Source of the DNA: Fibrobacteria bacterium
GTDB taxonomy: Bacteria; Fibrobacterota; Fibrobacteria; UBA11236
Length of the DNA: 64,000 bases
Assembly: GCA_017881725.1 (NCBI GenBank)
Contig: JADGQO010000135.1
Coordinates: 65,807 to 129,806, forward strand
Reading direction: 5' to 3'
Shown one piece after another: positions 1-22,262 of the stretch. Each line of letters starts with the position of its first letter. The first letter of the stretch is position 1. Position numbers and translations under genes: made by a program. The notes beneath the pieces were generated by a model. The model did no database searches. It was not told the DNA's origin and was given only the letters and a program-made list of their open reading frames with translations.

Positions 1-879
1 ATGAAAATCAAGACTGATTCATTCCGAGTGCGACCCGTGGGAAAAGTCGATCTCGATAAAATACCCACGAGGGGCCAACCGTTTTTCGATTCCAAGCACG
101 CCTACCGGAAATGCCTGCGCGACCATCTCAAGCAGATGGCTTTGCTGCAACGGCTTCTCTATGCCTCCGATCGCTATTCCCTGCTGCTGATTTTCCAAGC
201 CATGGACGCCGCCGGAAAGGATGGCGCCATCCGGCATGTCATGTCCGGGATCAATCCCCAAGGGTGCCAGGTGTTCAGTTTCAAGGAACCCAGTTCCGAG
301 GAGCTCGATCATGATTTCCTTTGGCGGACCAACTGCCGGCTTCCCGAACGCGGTCGGATCGGAATCTTCAATCGTTCCTATTACGAAGAGGTTTTGGTGG
401 TCCGCGTGCATCCGGAGATCCTCAAGGGACAGAACCTTCCCGACGGCCTCGGCGATGCGAAGGACGTTTGGAAAGGGCGGTTCCGATCCATCACGGAAAT
501 GGAAGCCCATCTCCACCGCAACGGCACCCGGGTCGTGAAATTCTTCCTCCACCTTTCCAAGGAGGAGCAACGCAAACGCTTCCTGGACCGGATCAAGGAG
601 TCGGACAAGAATTGGAAATTCAGCTTGGCGGATGTCCATGAACGGAAATACTGGGATGCATACATGAAGGCCTATGCGGAGTGTATTTCCGCGACCAGCA
701 CGGCGGATGCGCCTTGGTACATCATACCTGCGGATGACAAGCACGATGCCCGCTTAGCGATCTCGCAGATCATCCTCGAGACCTTGGATGGACTCAAAAT
801 GGCCTATCCAAAGGCGGATGAGGCGCGGCGCAAGGAATTGGCTGCCATCCGGAAAAATCTGGAAGGTGAAAAACGATGA
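1..879 (+). CDS. Polyphosphate kinase 2 (PPK2) family polyphosphate:nucleotide phosphotransferase; ORF begins at window position 1 so the true start may lie upstream
   Basis: The 292-aa ORF has a PPK2-type P-loop ('[16 protein letters not shown]'). Single-domain size is typical of class I/III PPK2. Its stop overlaps the next start (ATGA at 876-879). Confidence 0.8.
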
Positions 880-3068
880 CGAGCATCAACAGCGAACCCA
901 AGGCATCGAGTCCGCCGAGCCTCAGCCTGCTTCCCAAGGGCATAGCCGGAATGGATTCCTTGACGGAGCTGGCGCTCGATTTGCGCTGGTCCTGGAATCA
1001 TGCAACCGACAAAGTCTGGCGCGTGCTGGATCCCGGTTTGTGGGAGGCGACGCATAATCCCCTGGTGGTCCTGCAAACCATCTCCCGTGAGCGGATTGAA
1101 AATTCCTTAGCCGATCCGGGATTCCGGGAGACGCTCGACTTTTTGGTGGCCAGGAATCGCACGGCCGCGAAGGCGCCGTCCTGGTTCGGCAGCAAGCATG
1201 CGGAAGGTCCGCTGCGCACCATCGCGTACTTCAGCATGGAGTTCATGTTGAGCGAGGCCTTGCCGATTTATTCCGGTGGGCTGGGCAACGTGGCCGGAGA
1301 TCAATTGAAGGCGGCCAGCGATTTGGGCGTGCCCGTGATCGGCGTGGGTCTCCTTTACCAGCAGGGTTATTTCCGCCAGGCGATAGCCCGGGACGGATCG
1401 CAACAGGCGCTTTATCCGTACAATGATCCAGGGCAGTTGCCCATCTCGCCTTTGCGGCATGCGAATGGGGAATGGCTGCGTTTGGAGATCGCGCTCCCTG
1501 GATACTCCGTCTGGCTGCGGGCCTGGGAAGTGCGGGTCGGCAGGGCGAAGCTTTACCTTTTGGACAGCAACGACGCCGCGAATTTTCCCGCGCATCGCGG
1601 CATTACCAGCGAACTCTACGGGGGCGGTCCGGAGTTGCGTCTTAAGCAGGAACTGCTGCTCGGCATCGGTGGCTGGAGATTGCTGCGCGCTCTCGGCATC
1701 CAGCCGGAAATCTGCCATCTCAACGAAGGCCACGCCGCCTTCGCCGTGCTCGAACGCGCCTCCGACACCATGGTTTCCAAATCGTTGCCCTTCGAAAAGG
1801 CTTTGGCCCTCACGCGGGTCGGAAATCTTTTCACCACGCATACGGCGGTCCCGGCGGGATTCGATCGCTTCGCGCCCGCGCTCATCGAACCGTACCTTGG
1901 AAGTTACGCCAGAAATAAACTCGGAATTTCTCTCCGGGACCTGCTGGCGCTTGGGCGAGCGAATCCCAATGATAGTGGCGAGCCCTTCAATATGGCCTAC
2001 TTGGCAATCCGCGGGAGCGGGGCCGTCAACGGAGTCAGCCGCTTGCATGGGCAGGTCAGCCGCCGGCTTTTCGCGCCGCTTTTCCCGGGTCGCCGCGAAG
2101 AGGATGTGCCCATCGGACACGTGACCAACGGCGTCCACATGCCGACCTGGGATTCGGATCGGTCCGATGCGCTATGGACCGAAGCCTGCGGCAAGGACCG
2201 CTGGCTGGGTACCACCGAAGATTTGGCCGGCAGCATCCGGCAGGTATCGGATGAAAAACTCTGGGGTCTGCGGGTGGAATCCAGAAAATGTTTGGTGGAA
2301 TTCACGCGCAAGCGCCTGGCGCTGCAATTGGCGGTTTCCGGCGCGCCGCCTGCCGAAGTGGAGGAGGCTAAACACCTATTCCATCCCGACGCCTTGACCT
2401 TGGGCTTCGCGCGACGATTCGCTGCCTATAAAAGGCCCAACCTGCTTTTGCGGGATCCGGAACGTCTGCTCCGCATTCTGACCGACACGGCGCGACCCGT
2501 ACAGCTCATCCTCGCGGGCAAGGCGCATCCGCAGGACCATGACGGGCAGGCTTTAATCCTGGAGTGGATGAAATTCCTGCGCCGGCCCGAGGCGCGGCCG
2601 CATGTGATTTTCCTGAGCGACTACGATATGCGCTTGACGGAGCATTTGGTGCAAGGCGTGGATGTTTGGATCAATACGCCTAAACGGCCCTGGGAAGCCA
2701 GCGGCACCAGCGGCATGAAGGTGCTGGTCAACGGCGGCCTCAACCTATCGGAGCTGGATGGCTGGTGGGCCGAGGCCTATGCGCCGGAAGTGGGATGGGC
2801 TTTGGGAGATGGGCTGGAACACGGCGACGATCCCGGGCTGGACGGTCGGGAGGCGGATGCGCTGTATGGACTTTTGGAACGGGAAGTCGTGCCCGAATAT
2901 TATGCTCGGAACGGGAACGGCATTCCGGTCGCGTGGACCGGTCGGATTCGGGAAAGCATGGCGCGACTGACTCCGGAATTCTCGGCCAACCGGACCGTGC
3001 GCGAATACACGGAGCGGTATTACCTGCCCGCGGCGGAAGCCTACCTGGCGGGATCATCGCATGCGTAA
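876..3068 (+). CDS. glgP: Alpha-glucan (glycogen/maltodextrin) phosphorylase, GT35 family with DUF3417-type N-terminus
   Basis: 730 aa with motifs 'NEGHAAF' and '[15 protein letters not shown]'. The latter matches the PLP-lysine motif EASGTSNMKFxLNG of glycogen phosphorylases. It overlaps PPK2 by 4 bp and the HAD gene by 8 bp. Confidence 0.85.
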
Positions 3069-3714
3069 AAAATCCGAGGTAACCTGCCTGTTTCTGGACA
3101 TCGGGGGTGTGCTCCTGAGCAACGGTTGGGATCACCATGCGCGCAAACGCGCCGCCATCCGATTCAAGCTCGAGCGGGCGGAGATGGAGGAGCGCCACCA
3201 ACTGAACTTCGAGACTTATGAAATGGGAAAGATCACGCTCATCGAATACTTGGAGCGGGTGATTTTCCACCGCAAGAGACCGTTCACTCCGACGACGTTC
3301 AAAAAATTCATGTTCGCCCAGTCCCAAGCCATCCCCGGCATGATCGATCTGATGGCCCGGTTGAAGGCCCGTCACGCTTTGAAGATAGCCGTGGTCAGCA
3401 ACGAGGGCCGCGAGCTGAATGACTTCCGGATCGAGGCGTTCAAATTGGGCGGGCTCGTGGACTTTTTCATTTCCTCCTGTTTTGTGCAATTGCGAAAGCC
3501 GGATGCGGCGATTTTCCAAATGGCCTTGGACATCGCCCATGTACCGACAAGACAAATCCTTTATCTCGAAAACACGGCCTTGTTCGTGGAGGTCGCGGAG
3601 GGATTGGGGATCCGCAGCATCTTGCATACCGATCGGGCTTCCACGGAAAGCGCACTGGGATCGTTCGGATTGTCCGCTCCGATTGGAATGGCCACGAGGA
3701 AGAGGTCCCGATGA
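3061..3714 (+). CDS. HAD-superfamily hydrolase (subfamily IA-like), substrate unknown
   Basis: 217 aa with an N-terminal 'LFLDIGGVLL' motif-I-like loop and 'KPD' motif III. It is translationally coupled between glgP and ackA. Confidence 0.55.
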   Translation: MRKKSEVTCLFLDIGGVLLSNGWDHHARKRAAIRFKLERAEMEERHQLNFETYEMGKITLIEYLERVIFHRKRPFTPTTFKKFMFAQSQAIPGMIDLMARLKARHALKIAVVSNEGRELNDFRIEAFKLGGLVDFFISSCFVQLRKPDAAIFQMALDIAHVPTRQILYLENTALFVEVAEGLGIRSILHTDRASTESALGSFGLSAPIGMATRKRSR

Positions 3715-4928
3715 AACCTGCCGCCCTCCGCATCCTCACTTTGAATGGCGGCTCTTCGAGCATTAAGTGCGCCCTGTACGAGTCAGGGTCTTCCTTGCGG
3801 CTGATCTGGGAGGGAAGCCTGGAGCGGATTGGACAGCCGGGTACGGTATTCAGGATCAAGTGGCCTGAAAGTACGCAGGGTTTTACCAGGAGTCTGGAAG
3901 GATTTGATGATACGAAGTCGATTCAGGCTGTGGCGGATTGGATCGAAACGGAAGGCGCCCAGGAAGGCCTGGCTGCGGTGGGCCATCGCGTGGTGCAAGG
4001 CGGTCCGGATTTTTTCCAACCCCAGTTGATTACCGACGCCATGCTATCGGACTTGCGGCGGCTGAGCCCCCTTGATCCGGAACATATGCCTGGGGAGATC
4101 CGGATTATCGAAGCCTTTCGGAAAAAGTTCCCGCGGGTGCCGCATATCGCCTGTTTCGATACTGCCTTCCATCACGAGATGCCACACGTAGCGCGGATGT
4201 TACCGATCCCGCGCCGTTACGCATCCCAAGGCTTGCGGCGTTACGGCTTCCACGGCCTTTCCTACGAGTATCTAATGGGGGAGTTGACCCGGCTGGCGGG
4301 ACCGGAAGCCGCGCGCGGCAGGATCATCCTGGCCCATCTCGGCAGCGGAGCCAGTCTGGCGGCGGTGCGTGACGGCAAGCCCGTCGATACGAGCATGGGT
4401 TTTACGCCCGCGTCCGGCCTGGTGATGGGTACGCGGACCGGGGACTTGGATCCGGGACTTTTCAGCTACCTCTCTCGCAAGGAGGGCATGACGGAATCCG
4501 GATTCCAGCGCATGGTGAACCATGAGTCCGGGATGCGCGGCATTTCCGAGACGGTTTCCGATATGCGGGATCTGCTCGCTCGCGAAGCGCGGGATGTGAG
4601 GGCCGCCGAGGCCGTGGAACTATTCTGCTATCAGGCCCGTAAATGGATCGGAGCGTTTGCGGCAGCGCTGGGCGGCTTGGACATCTTGGTGTTCTCCGGC
4701 GGTATCGGCGAACATGCTCCCGTGGTGCGGGCACGGATTTGTGAAGACTTGGGATTCCTCGGCATCGAGATCGATGGAAAAAAGAATGACGTGAACGCGG
4801 AAGTGATTTCGACCGACTCCGGAAAGGTTTCGGTGCGGGTCACACCCACGGATGAGGAGTTGAGGATGGCGCAATTAGTTTCGCAAATTCTTGAAAGTGG
4901 AAATGACCATAAAAAGGAGTCGGTATGA
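3711..4928 (+). CDS. ackA: Acetate kinase
   Basis: 405 aa with an N-terminal 'LTLNGGSSSIKCALY' and a 'GFHGLSYEY' motif. Its stop TGA (4926-4928) overlaps the ATG of the next small ORF. Confidence 0.9.
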   Translation: MKPAALRILTLNGGSSSIKCALYESGSSLRLIWEGSLERIGQPGTVFRIKWPESTQGFTRSLEGFDDTKSIQAVADWIETEGAQEGLAAVGHRVVQGGPDFFQPQLITDAMLSDLRRLSPLDPEHMPGEIRIIEAFRKKFPRVPHIACFDTAFHHEMPHVARMLPIPRRYASQGLRRYGFHGLSYEYLMGELTRLAGPEAARGRIILAHLGSGASLAAVRDGKPVDTSMGFTPASGLVMGTRTGDLDPGLFSYLSRKEGMTESGFQRMVNHESGMRGISETVSDMRDLLAREARDVRAAEAVELFCYQARKWIGAFAAALGGLDILVFSGGIGEHAPVVRARICEDLGFLGIEIDGKKNDVNAEVISTDSGKVSVRVTPTDEELRMAQLVSQILESGNDHKKESV

Positions 4929-5050
4929 TGAACAATACGGGTGGATGGATGCATGGTTGGATGGGTGGAGGGATGTGGACTTGGTCACCGATTGGTGTCT
5001 TGGTCGCAATCTTATTGGTGGTTTTGGTCTTCAGGCTGGTGAGGAGATAA
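4925..5050 (+). CDS. Small (41 aa) Trp/Met/Gly-rich single-pass membrane peptide, MMNNTGGWMHGWMGGGMWTWSPIGVLVAILLVVLVFRLVRR; putative Cu(I)-binding micro-protein
   Basis: A strong SD (AAGGAG, 4913-4918) lies 6 nt before ATG 4925. The N-terminal region is rich in Met, Trp and His; a hydrophobic helix and an RR tail follow. It sits immediately upstream of the Cu+-ATPase and is absent from the ORF track because it is shorter than 60 aa. Confidence 0.4.
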   Translation: MMNNTGGWMHGWMGGGMWTWSPIGVLVAILLVVLVFRLVRR

Positions 5051-5103: not shown

Positions 5104-7332
5104 ATGCTGAATACCCTATCCACGGCCAAGCCGGAAAATCCTATCGATAAAGTTGAATCCGCGCCTTTAAAGGAGACGTATTCAAGGGCAGACCCTTCCG
5201 CCTCTGGACCGGTGTATACTTGCCCCATGCATCCGGAGGTCCGGCAAAATAAACCCGGTGCATGCCCCAAGTGTGGCATGGCGCTGGAACCGGTTCAGTC
5301 AGGGACAAAGGCCGCAGCGGAAGGGGACGGGAATACGGAGCTGACCGATATGGAAAGGCGGTTCTGGATTGGCGGAGCGTTGACGCTTCCGGTTTTCCTG
5401 CTGGCCATGGCGCATCTTATCCCGCCCTTGGCACGGCAGGTTTGGATCATGGGTGATGTTTCACGTTGGCTGCAATTCGGCTTGACCACGCCCGTGGTCG
5501 TTTGGGCCGGTTGGCCGTTTTTTCAACGCGGGTGGCGATCGATTCTCACTTGGAATTTGAACATGTTCACCTTGATATCCATGGGAGTCAGCGCCGCTTA
5601 TCTCTTCAGCGCGGTCGCCATGTTGATGCCGGGTTTATTTCCCGTCACCATGGCGCATGGCGGCAAGGTCGCCATCTACTTCGAGGCGGCGGCCGTGATC
5701 ATCGTTTTGGTTTTGCTGGGACAAGTACTGGAACTGCGAGCCCGCAGCCGTACCGGAAGCGCCATCAAAGCGCTGTTGCACCTCGCGCCGCCCACGGCCC
5801 GGCAGGTTTCACCGGATGGAGATAACGTAGTGCCGCTGGAACAGGTCAAGGTGGGCGATTGGCTGCGCGTCGTTCCCGGGGACAAGGTTCCCGTCGATGG
5901 CGCCGTGGTTGAAGGACGCTCCAGCGTGGAGGAGTCCATGATTACCGGCGAAGCGATTCCGGTGGAAAAATCCGTGGGAGACAAGGTGACGGGCGGAACT
6001 GTCAATGGTTCCGGTAGTTTCGTCATGCGCGCCGATAGGGTGGGTAAGGACACGTTGCTGGGGCGAATCGTGGATATGGTCGCCGAGGCGCAGCGCAGCC
6101 GTGCGCCCATCCAGGGTTTGGCGGACAAGGTCGCCAAAATTTTTGTTCCCACCGTGGTGGGCATTTCGATTTTGACCTTCGTTCTCTGGTTCTGGTTGGG
6201 ACCGGATCCCAGGCTGGCGCATGCCATCGTCAACGCCGTCGCCGTCCTGATCATAGCCTGTCCGTGTGCCTTGGGGCTTGCGACACCCATGTCCATCATG
6301 GTCGGGGTGGGGCGCGGAGCCCAGGAAGGCGTGCTCGTGAAAAGCGCGGAGGCGTTGGAAAGGCTGGAGAAGGTGACCACCCTTGTCATCGACAAGACCG
6401 GCACGCTAACGGAAGCCAAGCCCAAGCTGACGGATATCCTCCCCGTGGACGGTTTTGATGCGAAGGAATTTTTGCTGCTGGCCGCTTCGCTGGAACAAAA
6501 TAGCGAACATCCGCTCGCGACCGCCATCGTGAAGGGCGCCAAGGAGAGTGGCGCAGCCCTCGAAAAAGTAGAAGCCTTTCAATCCGTTACCGCCGGTGGG
6601 GTAACCGGCACGGTACGGGGCCGGAAAGTTATCGTCGGCAAATTGGATTTCCTGAAGCAGGAAAAAATCATGGGGTTGGAAGCCATGGCGGCCTCCGCTG
6701 AAAAATTGCAGGCGGAAGGTAAAACCGCGATGTACGTCGCCGTGGACGGACGACCTGCCGGAATCCTAGCGGTAGCTGATCCCATGAAAGCCTCTACGCC
6801 GGACGCCATCAAGGGGTTGCATGCATTGGGGCTTAAAATCGTCATGCTCACAGGAGACAATCGCAAAACCGCCGATGCCGTGGCCGGAAAGCTTGGCCTG
6901 GACGATGTGGTGGCCGGCATTGATCCCGCCGGAAAGGCGGACTATGTCAAGAAATTGCGGGCCGAAGGCCGTTATGTCGCCATGGCCGGTGATGGCATCA
7001 ACGATGCGCCGGCATTGAGCGCCGCCGAGGTTGGCATCGCCATGGGCACGGGCACGGACGTAGCGATGGAAAGTGCCGGCATCACTTTAGTGAAAGGAGA
7101 TTTGGGTGGCATCGCCAAGGCCATCCATCTCAGCCATGCCACCATGCGGAACATCCGCCAGAACCTCGTCTTCGCTTTTCTTTACAACGCGCTGGGCATC
7201 CCGTTGGCTGCCGGAGCGCTCTACCCTTTCTTCGGCTGGCTCCTAAGTCCCATCATCGCCGGCGCGGCCATGAGCCTCAGTTCCGTGTCGGTAATCAGCA
7301 ACGCTTTGCGGTTGCGGAAAGTGGCGATATGA
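5104..7332 (+). CDS. copA: Copper(I)/silver-translocating P1B-type ATPase with N-terminal CPxHPx...CPxCGM heavy-metal-binding domain
   Basis: It has a TM6 'CPC' motif, a TM7 'YNALGIP', a TM8 'MSLSSVS', the phosphorylation motif DKTGTLT and 'GDGINDAP'. The track ORF starts at GTG 5068, but ATG 5104 has an AGGAAGGA SD and is the more likely start. Its stop overlaps the xfp start (ATGA 7329-7332). Confidence 0.9.
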
Positions 7333-9743
7333 AGACCAAAACCCTTGATCCCGAAACGCTGCAAAAGACCAATGCCTATTGGCGCGCCGCCAATTATTTG
7401 TCCGTCGGGCAGATCTACCTCTATGACAATCCCCTGCTGAAAGAACCGCTGAAACTCTCGCATGTGAAACCCTTAGTGGTGGGGCATTGGGGCACCACGC
7501 CGGGTCAGAATTTCATCTACGTCCATCTGAATCGCGTCATCAAAAAATATGACTTGAACATGTTCTACATCGCCGGGCCCGGCCACGGCGGACCGGCCAT
7601 CGTAGGCAACGTTTATCTCGAAGGCACCTGGAGCGAAGTGTATCCGAACGTCACGCAGGACGAAGCCGGTTTGAAAAAACTCTTCAAGCAATTCTCGTTT
7701 CCCGGAGGCATTTCCAGCCATGTGGCGCCCACGACGCCGGGCTCCATTCACGAAGGCGGCGAACTGGGCTATTCCCTCAGCCATGCCTTTGGCGCGGTCT
7801 TCGACAATCCCGATCTCATCGTCGCCTGCGTCGTCGGAGACGGTGAAGCGGAAACCGGCCCCTTGGCCACCGCGTGGCAGTCCAATAAGTTTCTCGATCC
7901 GATCTCGGACGGAGCCGTGCTGCCCATCCTGCATCTCAACGGCTACAAGATTTCCAATCCTACCGTGCTGGCCCGCATTGAACCGGATGAACTGGATCAA
8001 TTTTTTCGCGGCTGCGGCTGGACGCCTTATTTCGTTGAAGGCGACGACCCGGAAACCATGCACGAACTTATGGCCACCATGGCGGATAAAGCCATTGAGG
8101 ATATTCGCAACATCCAAAGCAACGCCCGTAACCGGAATGATACTACCCGCCCGCGCTGGCCCCTGATCGTGCTCCGATCACCCAAGGGTTGGACGGGACC
8201 GAAAGAAGTAGATGGGCTCAAAGTCGAAGGTACCTTCAGGGCGCATCAAGTGCCGTTAATAGTGAACGCGGAGCATCCCGAACATGTCGCGCAATTGGAA
8301 AGCTGGATGAAAAGCTACCGGCCCGAGGAATTGTTTGATAAGAGCGGCCGGCTCATTACGGAATTGGCTGAGCTGGCGCCGCAAGGTAACCGAAGAATGG
8401 GCGCGAATCCCCATGCCAACGGCGGCGTTTTGTTGCGCGATTTGAAAATGCCCGATTTCCATGCCCATGCGGTGCAGGTGCATGTGCCCGGCGCCGTGGA
8501 CGCACAGGATACGCTCGTGCTGGGAAATTTCCTACGCGATGTGACGCGGCTTAACCAGGAACGACGTCATTTCCGCATATTCGGCCCGGATGAGACGTTG
8601 TCCAATTTGCTGGGCGCGGTTTTTGAAGTCACCAACCGGCAATGGGATGGGCGCCAGAAAGGTGAGGATGAATTTCTCGCGCCCGCCGGAACGGTGTTGG
8701 ATTCGATGCTCAGCGAACACCAATGCGAGGGCTGGCTGGAAGGGTACCTGCTGACCGGTCGGCACGGCCTCTTCAACAGCTACGAGGCGTTCATCCGCAT
8801 CGTCGACTCGATGTTCAGCCAGCATGCCAAATGGCTCAAGGTAACCTCCGAGCTACCTTGGCGGCGGAAAATCGCGTCATTGAACTATCTGCTGGCCTCC
8901 CATGTGTGGCAGCAGGATCACAACGGATTCACGCATCAGGATCCGGGATTCATCGACCATGTCATCAACAAGAAGGCCGACATCGTGCGGGTTTACTTGC
9001 CGCCCGACGCCAATTGCCTGCTCTCGGTATTTGACCATTGCCTGCGCAGCCGGCATTACGTCAATGTGGTGGTGGCCGGGAAACACGCCCTGCCGCAATG
9101 GCTATCCATGGACGCGGCGGTGGTGCATTGCACGGAGGGCATCGGCATCTGGCAATGGGCCAGCAATGACCAGGGCAGTGATCCGGATGTGGTGATGGCC
9201 TGTTGCGGCGACACACCCACGCTGGAGATTCTGGCGGCCGTTTCCATCCTGCGCGAGCATATTCCCGATCTCAAGATCCGGGTGATCAATGTCGTCGATC
9301 TTATGAAGCTCCAATCCGCCGGCGAGCATCCGCACGGGCTGAGCGAAATTGATTACGACTCGCTGTTCACCACAAACAAACACATCATCTTCGGTTATCA
9401 CGGCTATCCCTGGCTGATCCATCGTCTGACCTATCGTCGCACCAACCGCAACCTGCACGTCCGTGGGTACAAGGAAGAGGGTACTATCACCACAGCCTTC
9501 GACATGCGCGTGCAAAACGATTTGGACCGGTTCCACCTGGTGCAGGACGTGGTGGATCGCCTACCGCATTTGGGCTCGAAAGGCGCGTACCTGAAGCAGC
9601 AGATGCAGAACAAGCTGATCGAGCACAAGCATTATATCGACGAGCATGGACAGGATTTGCCCGAGATCAGGAACTGGAAATGGGCGGAGCCTACCGGAAA
9701 GGAATCCGGAGCGAAAGCATTTGCGCTGGAATTGAAGGAATAA
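7329..9743 (+). CDS. xfp: Xylulose-5-phosphate/fructose-6-phosphate phosphoketolase
   Basis: 804 aa with '[11 protein letters not shown]', 'GPGHGGPA' and 'EGGELGYSL', which are phosphoketolase/TPP signature regions. Confidence 0.9.
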
Positions 9744-14617: not shown

Positions 14618-16933
<2,316 letters not shown>

Positions 16934-16941
<8 letters not shown>

Positions 16942-17269
16942 GGAGACAAAAGGAAAGTCCGACAGCGGGGACGGGTTTGGGGAGCGGGTGGGGGCCAAGG
17001 CCGATCGCTTGCTTAAGGTGAAACGGCATCCGCCTCAGGGAGTCTGGTTTGGACTGGGCATGATGGGCCTGATCGGCTGGTCGGTGGTGATCCCCACCGT
17101 AACCGGTGCGTTACTGGGGTTGTGGCTGGACGCGCGCCATCCCGGCAGCCATTCCTGGACCTTGGCGCTTTTGATGGCCGGTCTGGTGCTGGGATGCGGC
17201 AATGCCTGGCGCTGGGTCGCGAAAGAGGAAAAAGCGATGCGACGGGAACAGGAGGGCGACGATGCATGA
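16934..17269 (+). CDS. atpQ: N-ATPase accessory membrane protein AtpQ (AtpZ/AtpI-like)
   Basis: 111 aa with two hydrophobic helices ('VWFGLGMMGLIGWSVVIPTVTGALLGLWLD'). Its position after atpC matches the N-ATPase operon layout. Confidence 0.5.
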
Positions 17270-17597
17270 GGCCATGAACCGAATAACGACGGGCCTGGCG
17301 GGTCTGGCTGGTTTGGGAATAGGCACAGTCTTCTTCGGCGGCTTGTGGTGGACTGTGCGCCAAGGGGTAACCTCCAAGCGACCGGCGCTTCTTTTCACGG
17401 GCAGCATGGTGGCGCGTATGGGGTTCGCCCTGACCGGATTCTATTTCGTCTCGGCTCACCATTGGGAACGCGCGGTAGCCTGCCTGATCGGCTTTGTCGC
17501 GGCGCGCATGGCCGTGCGCATGACCGTGGAGAAGCTGGCGGGACCGAAATCGGAGCCCCAATCGGCCGAGACCCGGGAGGCCGGGAGTGCGGCTTAG
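17262..17597 (+). CDS. atpR: N-ATPase membrane protein AtpR (conserved intramembrane Arg)
   Basis: Start is MHEAMNRITTG at ATG 17262. It has two TM helices with Arg in 'SMVARMGFALTGF'. It is positioned before atpB, as in N-ATPase operons. Confidence 0.5.
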   Translation: MHEAMNRITTGLAGLAGLGIGTVFFGGLWWTVRQGVTSKRPALLFTGSMVARMGFALTGFYFVSAHHWERAVACLIGFVAARMAVRMTVEKLAGPKSEPQSAETREAGSAA

Positions 17598-18282
17598 CGC
17601 AGATGAATTGGTCTTTTGGAGGCATGGCTTCATCAAGGTCAATGCGACCATCGCCTATACCTGGGGACTGATGATCCTGATGGCCTTGGGCGCCAAACTC
17701 ATCACCCGTAACCTGTCGAAGGATCTCAAGCGATCGCGCTGGCAAAACCTTCTTGAGATCCTGGTCACGGCAATTGGGAAGCAGATCGGTGAAATCGGTT
17801 TGCGCGATCCGGGCAAGTACCTGGGCTTTCTGGGCACTCTTTTCCTGTTTATCGCCATGGCCAATATCTGCACCATCCTACCCGGATATGAACCTCCCAC
17901 GGGTTCGCTCTCGACTACAGCGGCCCTGGCCCTCTGCGTCTTCGTGGCCGTGCCCTATTATGGAATTACGGACCGTGGTTTGGGCGGCTACCTCAAGTCC
18001 TATCTGGAGCCGACTCCCATCATGCTACCGCTCAATATCATCAGCGAGCTTTCCCGCACCTTGGCCATGGCCGTCCGCCTGTTCGGCAATATGATGAGCG
18101 GCGCCATGATCATCGCGATTCTTTTGACCATCACGCCTTTTCTTTTCCCCATTGTCATGACCGCGCTGGGCCTGCTCACGGGAATGGTGCAGGCCTATAT
18201 CTTCAGCATCCTGGCCGCAGTGTACATCGCCGCCGCCACCCGCCCTGTTACTGAACAAAAACCGGAACGAAAACCGAAATGA
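17587..18282 (+). CDS. atpB: N-ATPase Fo subunit a
   Basis: 231 aa. 'LAMAVRLFGNMMSG' contains the essential Arg of subunit a. Confidence 0.85.
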   Translation: MRLSADELVFWRHGFIKVNATIAYTWGLMILMALGAKLITRNLSKDLKRSRWQNLLEILVTAIGKQIGEIGLRDPGKYLGFLGTLFLFIAMANICTILPGYEPPTGSLSTTAALALCVFVAVPYYGITDRGLGGYLKSYLEPTPIMLPLNIISELSRTLAMAVRLFGNMMSGAMIIAILLTITPFLFPIVMTALGLLTGMVQAYIFSILAAVYIAAATRPVTEQKPERKPK

Positions 18283-22186: not shown

Positions 22187-22262
22187 TGGAGCGGGTTAAG
22201 AGACTCGAACCCTCGACCTTCTCCTTGGCAAGGAGATGCTCTACCAACTGAGCTAAACCCGC
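22187..22262 (-). tRNA. tRNA-Gly (anticodon GCC), CCA encoded
   Basis: The reverse complement reads GCGGGTT-TA-GCTC-AGTTGGTA-GAGC-A-TCTCC-TTGCCAA-GGAGA-AGGTC-GAGGG-TTCGAGT-CTCTT-AACCCGC-T-CCA. This is a cloverleaf with U8, A9, a GTTCGAGT T-loop and anticodon loop TT-GCC-AA. The T-stem contains two G-U pairs. Confidence 0.8.

Follow-up and report, generated by a model that had tools for sequence, protein, structure and literature searches.

What is encoded by a 41-codon open reading frame (ORF) wedged between an acetate kinase gene and a copper pump gene? We investigated this question in a stretch of 64,000 nucleotides (nt) from a Fibrobacteria bacterium (assembly GCA_017881725.1, contig JADGQO010000135.1, positions 65,807 to 129,806 of the forward strand), hereafter the window, in which the micro-ORF lies between ackA and a CopA-like ATPase gene. 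An earlier note, made from the sequence alone, had presented its product as a membrane micro-protein translationally coupled to the Cu(I)-ATPase and possibly a Cu(I)-binding partner of that pump. Our sequence comparisons partly support this reading: the family is real and conserved beside copper pumps, and its putative pump partnership is broader than CopA. We put at about 45% the probability that the micro-protein is an accessory of copper export or handling modules, one that would handle Cu(I)/Ag(I), stabilize the pump, or both.

A conserved gene and its start

The micro-protein gene (4925..5050, +; 41 codons from an ATG to a TAA stop, as read from the sequence and the program-made ORF list) encodes MMNNTGGWMHGWMGGGMWTWSPIGVLVAILLVVLVFRLVRR and belongs to an unnamed family of about 37-43 residues. 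A word-indexed homologue search with the window peptide returned two proteins, the identical peptide and a 37-residue relative (MMDGYGGWMGGGMWTWAVLGLVVLVLLVVVIGKLSKK), and the family became visible only through an exhaustive HMMER scan with a two-sequence profile, which matched 408 of 1.84 billion representatives at E ≤ 1e-3 and 56 at E ≤ 1e-10. In a profile search of a 5.8-billion-cluster collection, at least 1886 clusters (90% identity) matched at E ≤ 1e-3, a lower bound from 8000 scored candidates. Nearly all HMMER hits span 37-115 residues and are matched right up to the C-terminus; inspection of the sequences showed that in the longer members the start had been called too far upstream, before a conserved MMN. 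The members give MMNHTDGWMGGWMGGGMWIWTVIGVLVVVLLVVVINKLSKK as a consensus, and the pattern can be written MMN-x3-GWM-x-GWMGGGMW-x-W followed by a transmembrane (TM) segment and KLSKK. Over its full length, the window peptide can be aligned with family members at 44-70% identity; it shows the features that define it (36-45 residues, a tail ending in GGGMWxW, one Val/Leu helix and a basic C-terminus), and keeps W8, M9, G11, W12, G14-16, M17, W18, W20, L30, and L31.

The view that this is not a described family holds. Pfam and NCBIfam scans of the window peptide and the consensus returned no family model, only sub-threshold TM-like noise (DUF4191 at 13.5 bits vs. a cutoff of 30; PA2779 and EYxxD at E of about 0.05), and no precomputed Pfam domain occurs in the 120 best family members. 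The source databases give no functional name: members are called "hypothetical protein" or "uncharacterized membrane protein", and the few labeled "anti-sigma-K factor RskA" are evidently mislabeled. A text search of 8 million papers gave no hit for the motif WMGGGMW, keyword literature searches turned up no description of the family, and tblastn of the consensus against the PLSDB plasmids gave no match, for which low-complexity masking is a possible cause. Annotation systematically misses proteins of <50 residues. This family is abundant and conserved over at least 10 phyla, and it has no Pfam or NCBIfam model or name.

We assembled a set of loci by searching species-representative genomes with a degenerate DNA pattern for WMGGGMWxW. 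Of at least 118 matches, 111 encode a family member and 110 of these, with a placeable start codon, form the analysis set; the remaining seven (Aquiflexum and others) are unrelated low-complexity proteins and were discarded. The distance from WMGGG to the stop is fixed at 31 codons in 97 of 111 sequences (the 110 loci plus the window), which comprise 97 distinct DNA versions, and column entropy outside the searched motif is 0.73, 0.52, and 1.04 at codon positions 1, 2, and 3, respectively. A fixed frame and stop, with variation richest at third positions, are the mark of a translated gene under purifying selection; the gene is real and conserved, and the micro-ORF is probably translated in this organism. 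The ORF is short and of low complexity, and its genome is rich in G+C, a setting with many spurious ORFs, which would suit a chance ORF or annotation artefact without a product, but the hundreds to thousands of homologues with conserved length, start and stop, the coding substitution pattern and the conserved synteny already refute that explanation, and its probability is practically nil. Two other candidates were rejected: a type I toxin or bacteriocin-like peptide, by the mid-operon location, conserved synteny and translational coupling, and the truncated N-terminus of a larger protein (e.g., SHOCT), by matches that always end C-terminally and by the lack of Pfam domains in the best members.

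At the start of the gene, a consensus Shine-Dalgarno (SD) site and an ATG overlapping the ackA stop were found as the earlier note had described them. The SD, AAGGAG (4914..4919, +; read from the sequence), stands 5 nt before the ATG within the last ackA codons, and the ackA stop TGA (4926-4928) overlaps the ATG (4925-4927) as ATGA. At other loci the equivalent of the SD site is GAAAGGAG or GAAAGGGG, within a conserved core, GGTCGCAGCGCAACGAAAGG. A TGA occupies +2 to +4 of the chosen start ATG in 89 of the 110 loci, including the window (4925-4930). An ATGATG start automatically yields a TGA in the +1 frame, and unrelated upstream genes (ackA and an unnamed membrane protein) end exactly at this TGA. 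This start context (SD plus ATGATG) is kept across loci, and selection for the double Met may have acted on a termination-reinitiation junction in addition to the peptide. The coupling is thus to ackA and not, as had been proposed, to copA, because 53 nt separate the end of the micro-ORF (5050) from the copA ATG (5104). No terminator-like site lies within this gap, and copA has its own SD, AGGAAGGA, four bases upstream of its ATG. Position 5104 is the copA start called on L008, an identical 1378-bp Logan contig; the program-made ORF list gives an in-frame upstream start for the ATPase ORF, GTG 5068, and we consider ATG 5104 the more plausible of the two.

This arrangement bears on one rival explanation, that of a regulatory leader ORF whose translation or membrane insertion would set pump expression, through coupling or a copper-sensitive nascent chain, with the mature peptide being irrelevant. 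The TGA junctions at which ackA and the membrane protein end would suit such a leader, as would the position of the micro-ORF as first cistron before a DUF302 or ATPase gene at many loci, and there is a precedent in CutF of Rhodobacter, a small exported peptide that senses copper and thereby controls the translation of what follows it (PMC9973294). However, the window copA has 53 nt and a separate SD ahead of it, the downstream gene varies between loci, the peptide contains no proline-rich or other known stalling motif, and purifying selection acts across phyla on its whole length, the helix and C-terminal KLSKK included. A leader function is, in our view, very improbable.

Composition, predicted topology, and known counterparts

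Across the family, the tail up to GGGMWxW comprises about 19 residues, of which 71% are Gly, Met, or Trp (G 29%, M 24%, W 18%), with medians of four Met and three Trp; His occurs in the tails of 78 of the 110 members (71%) and Cys in only two. In the window, residues 1-20 (MMNNTGGWMHGWMGGGMWTW; 4925..4984, +) form this Gly/Met/Trp-rich N-terminal tail, predicted to be flexible and periplasm-facing, and residues 21-41 (SPIGVLVAILLVVLVFRLVRR; 4985..5047, +) form a single TM helix with a basic C-terminal end that is predicted to be cytoplasmic. An AlphaFold2 run on a 50-sequence alignment predicted a helix at residues 20-40 (predicted local distance difference test, pLDDT, 92-94) and a tail that is mostly coil at low confidence (pLDDT 59-65), and composition and model together bear out the proposed order of a Met/Trp-rich N-terminal segment followed by one TM helix. 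The family mean net charge is -0.4 in the tail vs. +2.7 in the last eight residues; because of this difference, the positive-inside rule predicts that the peptide is oriented N-out/C-in, its tail lying at the periplasmic surface, and a single-pass N-out/C-in peptide is the best reading. The peptide ends 5-6 residues past the helix (..RLVRR or ..KLSKK), and its sole non-TM segment is N-terminal. Within the motif GWMxGWMGGGMW, to which the earlier note had drawn attention, W8, M9, G11, W12, G14-16, M17, and W18 are near-invariant across the family alignment, as is W20; the helix and the LL/KK positions are also among the best-conserved columns.

Met thioethers and Trp, sometimes with His, act as soft Cu(I)/Ag(I) ligands without Cys, in an oxidizing compartment, in CusF and in the Mets motifs of Ctr1, PcoE/SilE, and the CusB N-termini. 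The tail resembles these in its Met and Trp (sometimes His) composition, by analogy with which a ligand role can be suggested, and CusF genes stand next to the micro-ORF at L128 and L129. CusF, however, has about 90 residues folded into a soluble beta-barrel (PF11604) and a defined Met2His-Trp site, whereas the micro-protein tail is only ~19 residues long, Gly-rich, predicted to be disordered, and membrane-tethered, with no positionally conserved His. Pfam scans of the window peptide and consensus gave no match to CusF_Ec (PF11604), and the AlphaFold2 model consists of a coil and one helix. The CusF-like Met2His ligand set that had been read into the window tail is not conserved as such: with respect to a Met2-His site with a capping Trp, the Met and Trp positions are near-invariant, but His has no fixed position, His10 of the window is not a conserved family position, and the common His4 is replaced by Asn in the window. 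Among 123 trimmed representatives, 14 are 40 residues long, with examples starting MNH rather than MMNH. An MNH start would put His at position 3, comparable to the amino-terminal Cu(II)/Ni(II) (ATCUN)-like motif; the window peptide starts with MMNN and lacks an ATCUN-like His3.

Mycobacterial PacL1-3 are small single-TM proteins that are encoded upstream of P1B ATPases, are co-expressed with them, and are required for their stability and clustering, and PacL1 binds metal (PMC13460109). The micro-protein shares several features with PacL1, PacL2, and PacL3 (DUF1490), the partners of CtpC, CtpG, and CtpV in Mycobacterium tuberculosis: it is likewise small and single-TM, it is encoded upstream of a P1B ATPase on the same strand in the window, with a P-type ATPase directly downstream at 15 further loci, and some genomes hold several paralogues of it, as PacL has one per pump (PMC13460109). 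PacL proteins are longer, however: they have a Glu/Ala-repeat region in the cytoplasm and a disordered region through which they bind the cytoplasmic metal-binding domain of the pump, whereas the micro-protein has only 5-6 cytoplasmic residues. The PacL metal motif is His/Asp-rich, C-terminal, and cytoplasmic, in contrast to the N-terminal, Met/Trp, predicted periplasmic candidate site of the micro-protein. No match to DUF1490 was found at E ≤ 1 in Pfam-A scans of the window peptide and consensus.

Single-helix peptides that bind or regulate P-type ATPases include KdpF, sarcolipin/phospholamban, yeast PMP1, and MgtR/MgtS. The likeness of the micro-protein to KdpF, sarcolipin, PMP1, and MgtR/MgtS lies in length (about 30-50 residues), one TM helix, and ties to P-type ATPases, genetic or physical in the case of these peptides and by gene position in that of the micro-protein; these peptides show no sequence similarity to it, lack a Met/Trp-rich extracytoplasmic tail, and have P1A, P2, and P3 rather than P1B partners. 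We found no Pfam or NCBIfam match to the KdpF family and no kdp genes among the labeled neighbors. The ccoGHIS cluster encodes CcoS/FixS, a membrane protein some 50 residues long, next to the copper P1B ATPase CcoI/FixI. FixS differs in having its own Pfam family, which the micro-protein does not match, a gene that follows that of the pump, and a C-terminal motif that is conserved and cytoplasmic. Among copper-translocating P-type ATPases, fixI is included in PMC6515984. With no model match and another architecture, the micro-protein is, on its sequence, not a member of PacL/DUF1490, CusF, KdpF, or FixS, and what sets it apart from PacL, CusF, and the Mets motifs is a predicted extracytoplasmic, Gly-spaced Met/Trp tail on a 40-residue scaffold.

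Neighboring genes and the case for a copper accessory

The 110 loci cover at least 10 phyla and come mainly from soil, peat, and sediment metagenome-assembled genomes (MAGs). Carriers belong to Acidobacteriota (many Terriglobia, Bryobacteraceae, and Solibacteraceae), Verrucomicrobiota, Planctomycetota, Gemmatimonadota, and Nitrospirota; to Beta-, Gamma-, and Deltaproteobacteria (Nitrotoga, Crenothrix, Methylobacter svalbardensis, Anaeromyxobacter, and Desulfuromonadales); and to Chlamydiota (Waddlia), Bacteroidota, Chloroflexota, Armatimonadota, Sericytochromatia, and Dormiibacterota. One Nitrospirota bin contains three copies (L029, L078, and L107), and one Acidobacteriaceae contig contains two copies 16 kb apart (L084 and L099).

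We clustered the ORFs within 5-6 kb of the 110 micro-ORFs, labeled them by Pfam and by the window proteins, and counted those on the same strand. A P-type ATPase gene lies within 6 kb at 51 loci, immediately downstream of the micro-ORF at 15 and immediately upstream at 8 (23 loci with an immediately adjacent pump on either side). DUF302 (PF03625) is immediately downstream at 33 of the 86 loci having at least 1 kb of downstream sequence, and a Met-rich secreted protein is immediately upstream at 20. AckA is immediately upstream at 12 loci other than the window, an N-ATPase operon immediately downstream at 5, and Xfp nearby at 19; lesser neighbors include PPK2, glucan phosphorylase, aldolase, transaldolase, G6PDH, CusA/CusB, multicopper oxidase, DUF4396, dodecin, and PRC-barrel proteins. 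At least one metal-homeostasis gene is present at 80 of the 110 loci (91 if DUF302 is counted), carbon/energy genes (AckA, Xfp, PPK2, glucan phosphorylase, or N-ATPase) at 53, and both kinds at 46; the 12 loci with neither are mostly on truncated contigs. The micro-protein is thus strongly linked in the genome to P-type ATPases, DUF302, and Met-rich periplasmic proteins.

The P-type ATPases within 6 kb are mostly P1B copper types: 13 carry CPC with HMBD, nine are His-rich CPH CopB-like, four SPC, and one CPD, alongside four P3A H+-type pumps and 19 unclassifiable fragments. A P3A H+-ATPase-like pump, not a P1B pump, lies directly downstream of the micro-ORF at L102 and L121, in a context of aldolase, transaldolase, and Xfp, and such a pump is likewise near the micro-ORF at L011 and L051. 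The presumed link to CopA with CPC and HMBD is therefore not specific, since CPH, SPC, CPD, and P3A ATPases are also neighbors. As for the ATPase as a partner, the association stands at 51 of the 110 loci, but DUF302 is the commoner immediate downstream gene (33 vs. 15 loci). Conservation upstream of copA orthologues, the absence of which the earlier note had named as the refuting result, was found: the window order AckA-micro-CopA (CPC)-Xfp recurs at L084 and L092, L077 and L107 have the order micro-DUF302-CopA, and the CopA proteins of these four loci are 75-79% identical to that of the window.

Copper genes also abound around the micro-ORF, where Met-rich secreted proteins recur together with CusA/B/F, P1B ATPases, multicopper oxidase, YHS, and DUF4396. 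Independent gene calls with precomputed Pfam domains at L127 gave CusBA, CBS, ferredoxin, the micro-protein, DUF302, DUF5676, P-ATPase, YHS, AckA, and Xfp, and independent calls at L128 and L129 gave CusF, the micro-protein, DUF302 (after a 3-nt gap), a convergent YHS-HMBD CopA, DUF2933, and a resistance-nodulation-division (RND) pump. We favor a copper role because these neighbors (P1B, CusF/CusBA, multicopper oxidase, YHS, DUF4396, and Met-rich proteins) coincide with a ligand-like composition, and a subunit role because the micro-ORF adjoins several ATPase subfamilies and PacL1-3 provide a precedent. In the mechanism that we propose, a Val/Leu helix (residues about 20-40) with a Lys/Arg end would anchor the peptide in the inner membrane with its C-terminus in the cytoplasm, exposing at the periplasmic membrane surface a flexible tail of ~19 residues, nearly all Gly, Met, and Trp. 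The Gly-spaced Met thioethers and Trp indoles could then form a soft Cu(I)/Ag(I) site tethered beside the P1B pump, where the tail would buffer exported Cu(I) or hand it on, and the helix may pack against the pump or DUF302-associated machinery as a small accessory subunit. These two roles are not mutually exclusive, and in both we infer what is essential, metal binding in the one and physical contact with the pump in the other. In this explanation the micro-protein belongs to a widespread, horizontally spread module for heavy-metal (mainly copper) export and stress.

Several observations weigh against a copper accessory. The commonest immediate neighbor is DUF302, of unknown function, rather than a pump. 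The CopA genes of L128 and L129 are convergent and hence not co-transcribed with the micro-ORF, a P3A H+-type ATPase is present at four loci, and an N-ATPase operon at five. About half of the loci carry carbon/energy genes, and what the loci share could be a stress/energy island and not copper. Conservation of the TM helix equals or exceeds that of the tail, and the window peptide fits neither of the commonest His positions (His4 is missing, and His10 is not of the family). Trp, Gly, and Met at a membrane interface can be purely structural.

In a metal-independent explanation, the TM helix would make the micro-protein a generic small accessory or stabilizer of ion pumps driven by ATP (P-type ATPases or others), comparable to KdpF, sarcolipin/phospholamban, yeast PMP1, or PacL in its scaffold role, and the tail would be only an interfacial anchor. 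It accommodates the variety of neighboring pumps (P3A, directly downstream at L102 and L121, as well as CPH, SPC, and CPD), the five loci where a P1B ATPase flanks the micro-ORF on one side and the N-ATPase operon on the other, the strong conservation of the helix and LL/KK positions, and the presence of several copies per genome, one per island (L029/L078/L107 and L084/L099). Yet an ATPase is missing from the surrounding 6 kb at more than half of the loci (many of these on short contigs), DUF302 directly adjoins the micro-ORF more often than a pump does, genes specific to copper in the periplasm (CusF, multicopper oxidase, and Met-rich proteins) turn up repeatedly in the vicinity, and the cross-phylum near-invariance of W8, M9, W12, M17, W18, and W20 exceeds what an anchor needs. 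We consider this explanation somewhat unlikely.

The frequency of DUF302 raises a further alternative, that the micro-protein is a membrane partner of DUF302 in a stress function (e.g., hypoxia or dormancy) and that the copper genes are island co-passengers. In addition to the 33 of 86 loci with DUF302 directly downstream, the 3-nt gap at L128 and L129, the pairing of the micro-ORF with DUF302 without an adjacent pump at several loci (e.g., L021, L058, L072, L083, L105, and L111), and the carbon/energy genes at 53 of the 110 loci are consistent with it. DUF302, however, does not adjoin the micro-ORF in the window, or at L084, L092, L029, L038, L075, L102, L108, L109, and L121. The 128-residue DUF302 protein (starting MLFKLSTDKTV) has, by inspection, no obvious N-terminal signal sequence, because of which its contact with the micro-protein would probably be limited to the 5-6 cytoplasmic residues. 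Heavy-metal resistance clusters have themselves been reported to contain DUF302 and DUF4396 (PMC7760498). We regard a DUF302-centered stress function as unlikely.

Returning to the copper accessory, how Cu(I) leaves the exit site of CopA-type pumps, and which periplasmic recipient takes it, is only partly understood. If the tail binds Cu(I), it would represent a minimal natural Met/Trp copper site, useful to bioinorganic chemistry, and the mycobacterial PacL "effluxosome" scaffolds would have a parallel in other phyla. DUF302 and the islands also gain a concrete context from a reproducible module that includes P1B ATPases and an unnamed Met-rich family. A stronger version, which we advance tentatively and with more doubt than confidence, is that the family is a class of micro-proteins, previously unrecognized and spanning phyla, that bind Cu(I)/Ag(I) while tethered to the membrane. 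They would be the first small subunit of bacterial P1B copper pumps to face the periplasm, would accept or buffer Cu(I) where it leaves the pump through a Met/Trp site free of Cys, and would be carried in a mobile copper-handling module with DUF302 and the Met-rich protein.

The island in the window and the upstream companions

The micro-ORF lies within a tightly packed same-strand operon. Upstream are PPK2 (1-879), a DUF3417-type alpha-glucan phosphorylase (876-3068), and a HAD hydrolase (3061-3714), all on the same strand as the micro-ORF, followed by the acetate kinase gene ackA (3711..4928, +; Pfam PF00871, E = 3e-109). Downstream, the CopA-like copper-type P1B ATPase (5104..7332, +; Pfam E1-E2_ATPase, Hydrolase, and HMBD PF19335) has a CPC motif and an N-terminal HMBD, CPMHPE...CPKCGM, and scores 594 bits against NCBIfam TIGR01511 (copper-translocating). 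The same operon includes the phosphoketolase gene xfp (7329..9743, +; Pfam XFP_N, XFP, and XFP_C), which overlaps the copA stop. The same-strand island extends over window positions 1-21000, with a class I aldolase gene and mannose-related PMI-like, PMM-like, and GH130 genes downstream of xfp and an N-type ATPase operon from about 15.1 kb (beta subunit 15081-16562; ATPase_gene1 16934-17269; a-subunit 17587-18282). The rest of the window contains no DUF302, Met-rich, or other module gene. A tRNA gene at 22190-22262 (-) is the sole Rfam match in the window.

The gene content of the island suggests a route from glycogen through acetyl-phosphate to ATP that feeds ATP-driven ion pumps; no publication was found joining phosphoketolase, acetate kinase, and PPK2 with a P-type ATPase. 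Island proteins are 75-87% identical to their counterparts in MAGs from different phyla, and IS91 and integrase genes adjoin one locus, because of which we suggest that the islands spread horizontally. The module would mark transferred islands that pair glycogen-to-acetyl-phosphate ATP generation with ATP-driven ion pumps, a type of island often found among Acidobacteriota, Verrucomicrobiota, Gemmatimonadota, and Planctomycetota from peat and soil.

Two kinds of secreted Met-rich (Met/His-rich) protein are encoded upstream of the micro-ORF (L013, L056, L071, L073, L106, L110, L116, L015, and others). The first has about 150 residues, a signal peptide, and a C-terminal MAQCPMMKGMKGMD..HKEH motif, and the second is a 167-residue lipoprotein with MHMGGTMGGG..MSGMMMPP (L001, 1043-1546). 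A Met/His-rich lipoprotein precedes P0002, the first relative found. These neighbors have no Pfam, NCBIfam, or PDB relative and, from their sequences, are likely to be further undescribed copper-binding families.

A second companion is an unnamed membrane protein of about 180 residues with the motif ...NEIWEMAQM...LWPLLQMTLLPPLTFWIAQWWAGRSATKGAL, whose TGA overlaps the micro-ORF ATG and which has no Pfam or NCBIfam match. It is upstream of the micro-ORF at L031, L054, L067, L091, L101, and L104 and downstream at L047. At 40 of the 110 loci, in many phyla, only the last 20-95 nt of its gene, containing the conserved core named above, are left directly upstream, and at some loci this remnant is still a 24-codon ORF. 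We had considered the ~95 nt of conserved upstream DNA as a promoter or RNA element and rejected this, the stretch being the 3' end, often a deletion remnant, of the membrane-protein gene; Rfam scans of 14 loci and the whole window gave no match upstream of the micro-ORF. At L047 (Crenothrix polyspora), about 130-90 nt before the micro-ORF, there is a TTGACA box and, beyond it, the perfect inverted repeat TCCACTG-N5-CAGTGGA, which at this single locus may be the operator of a metal-responsive regulator.

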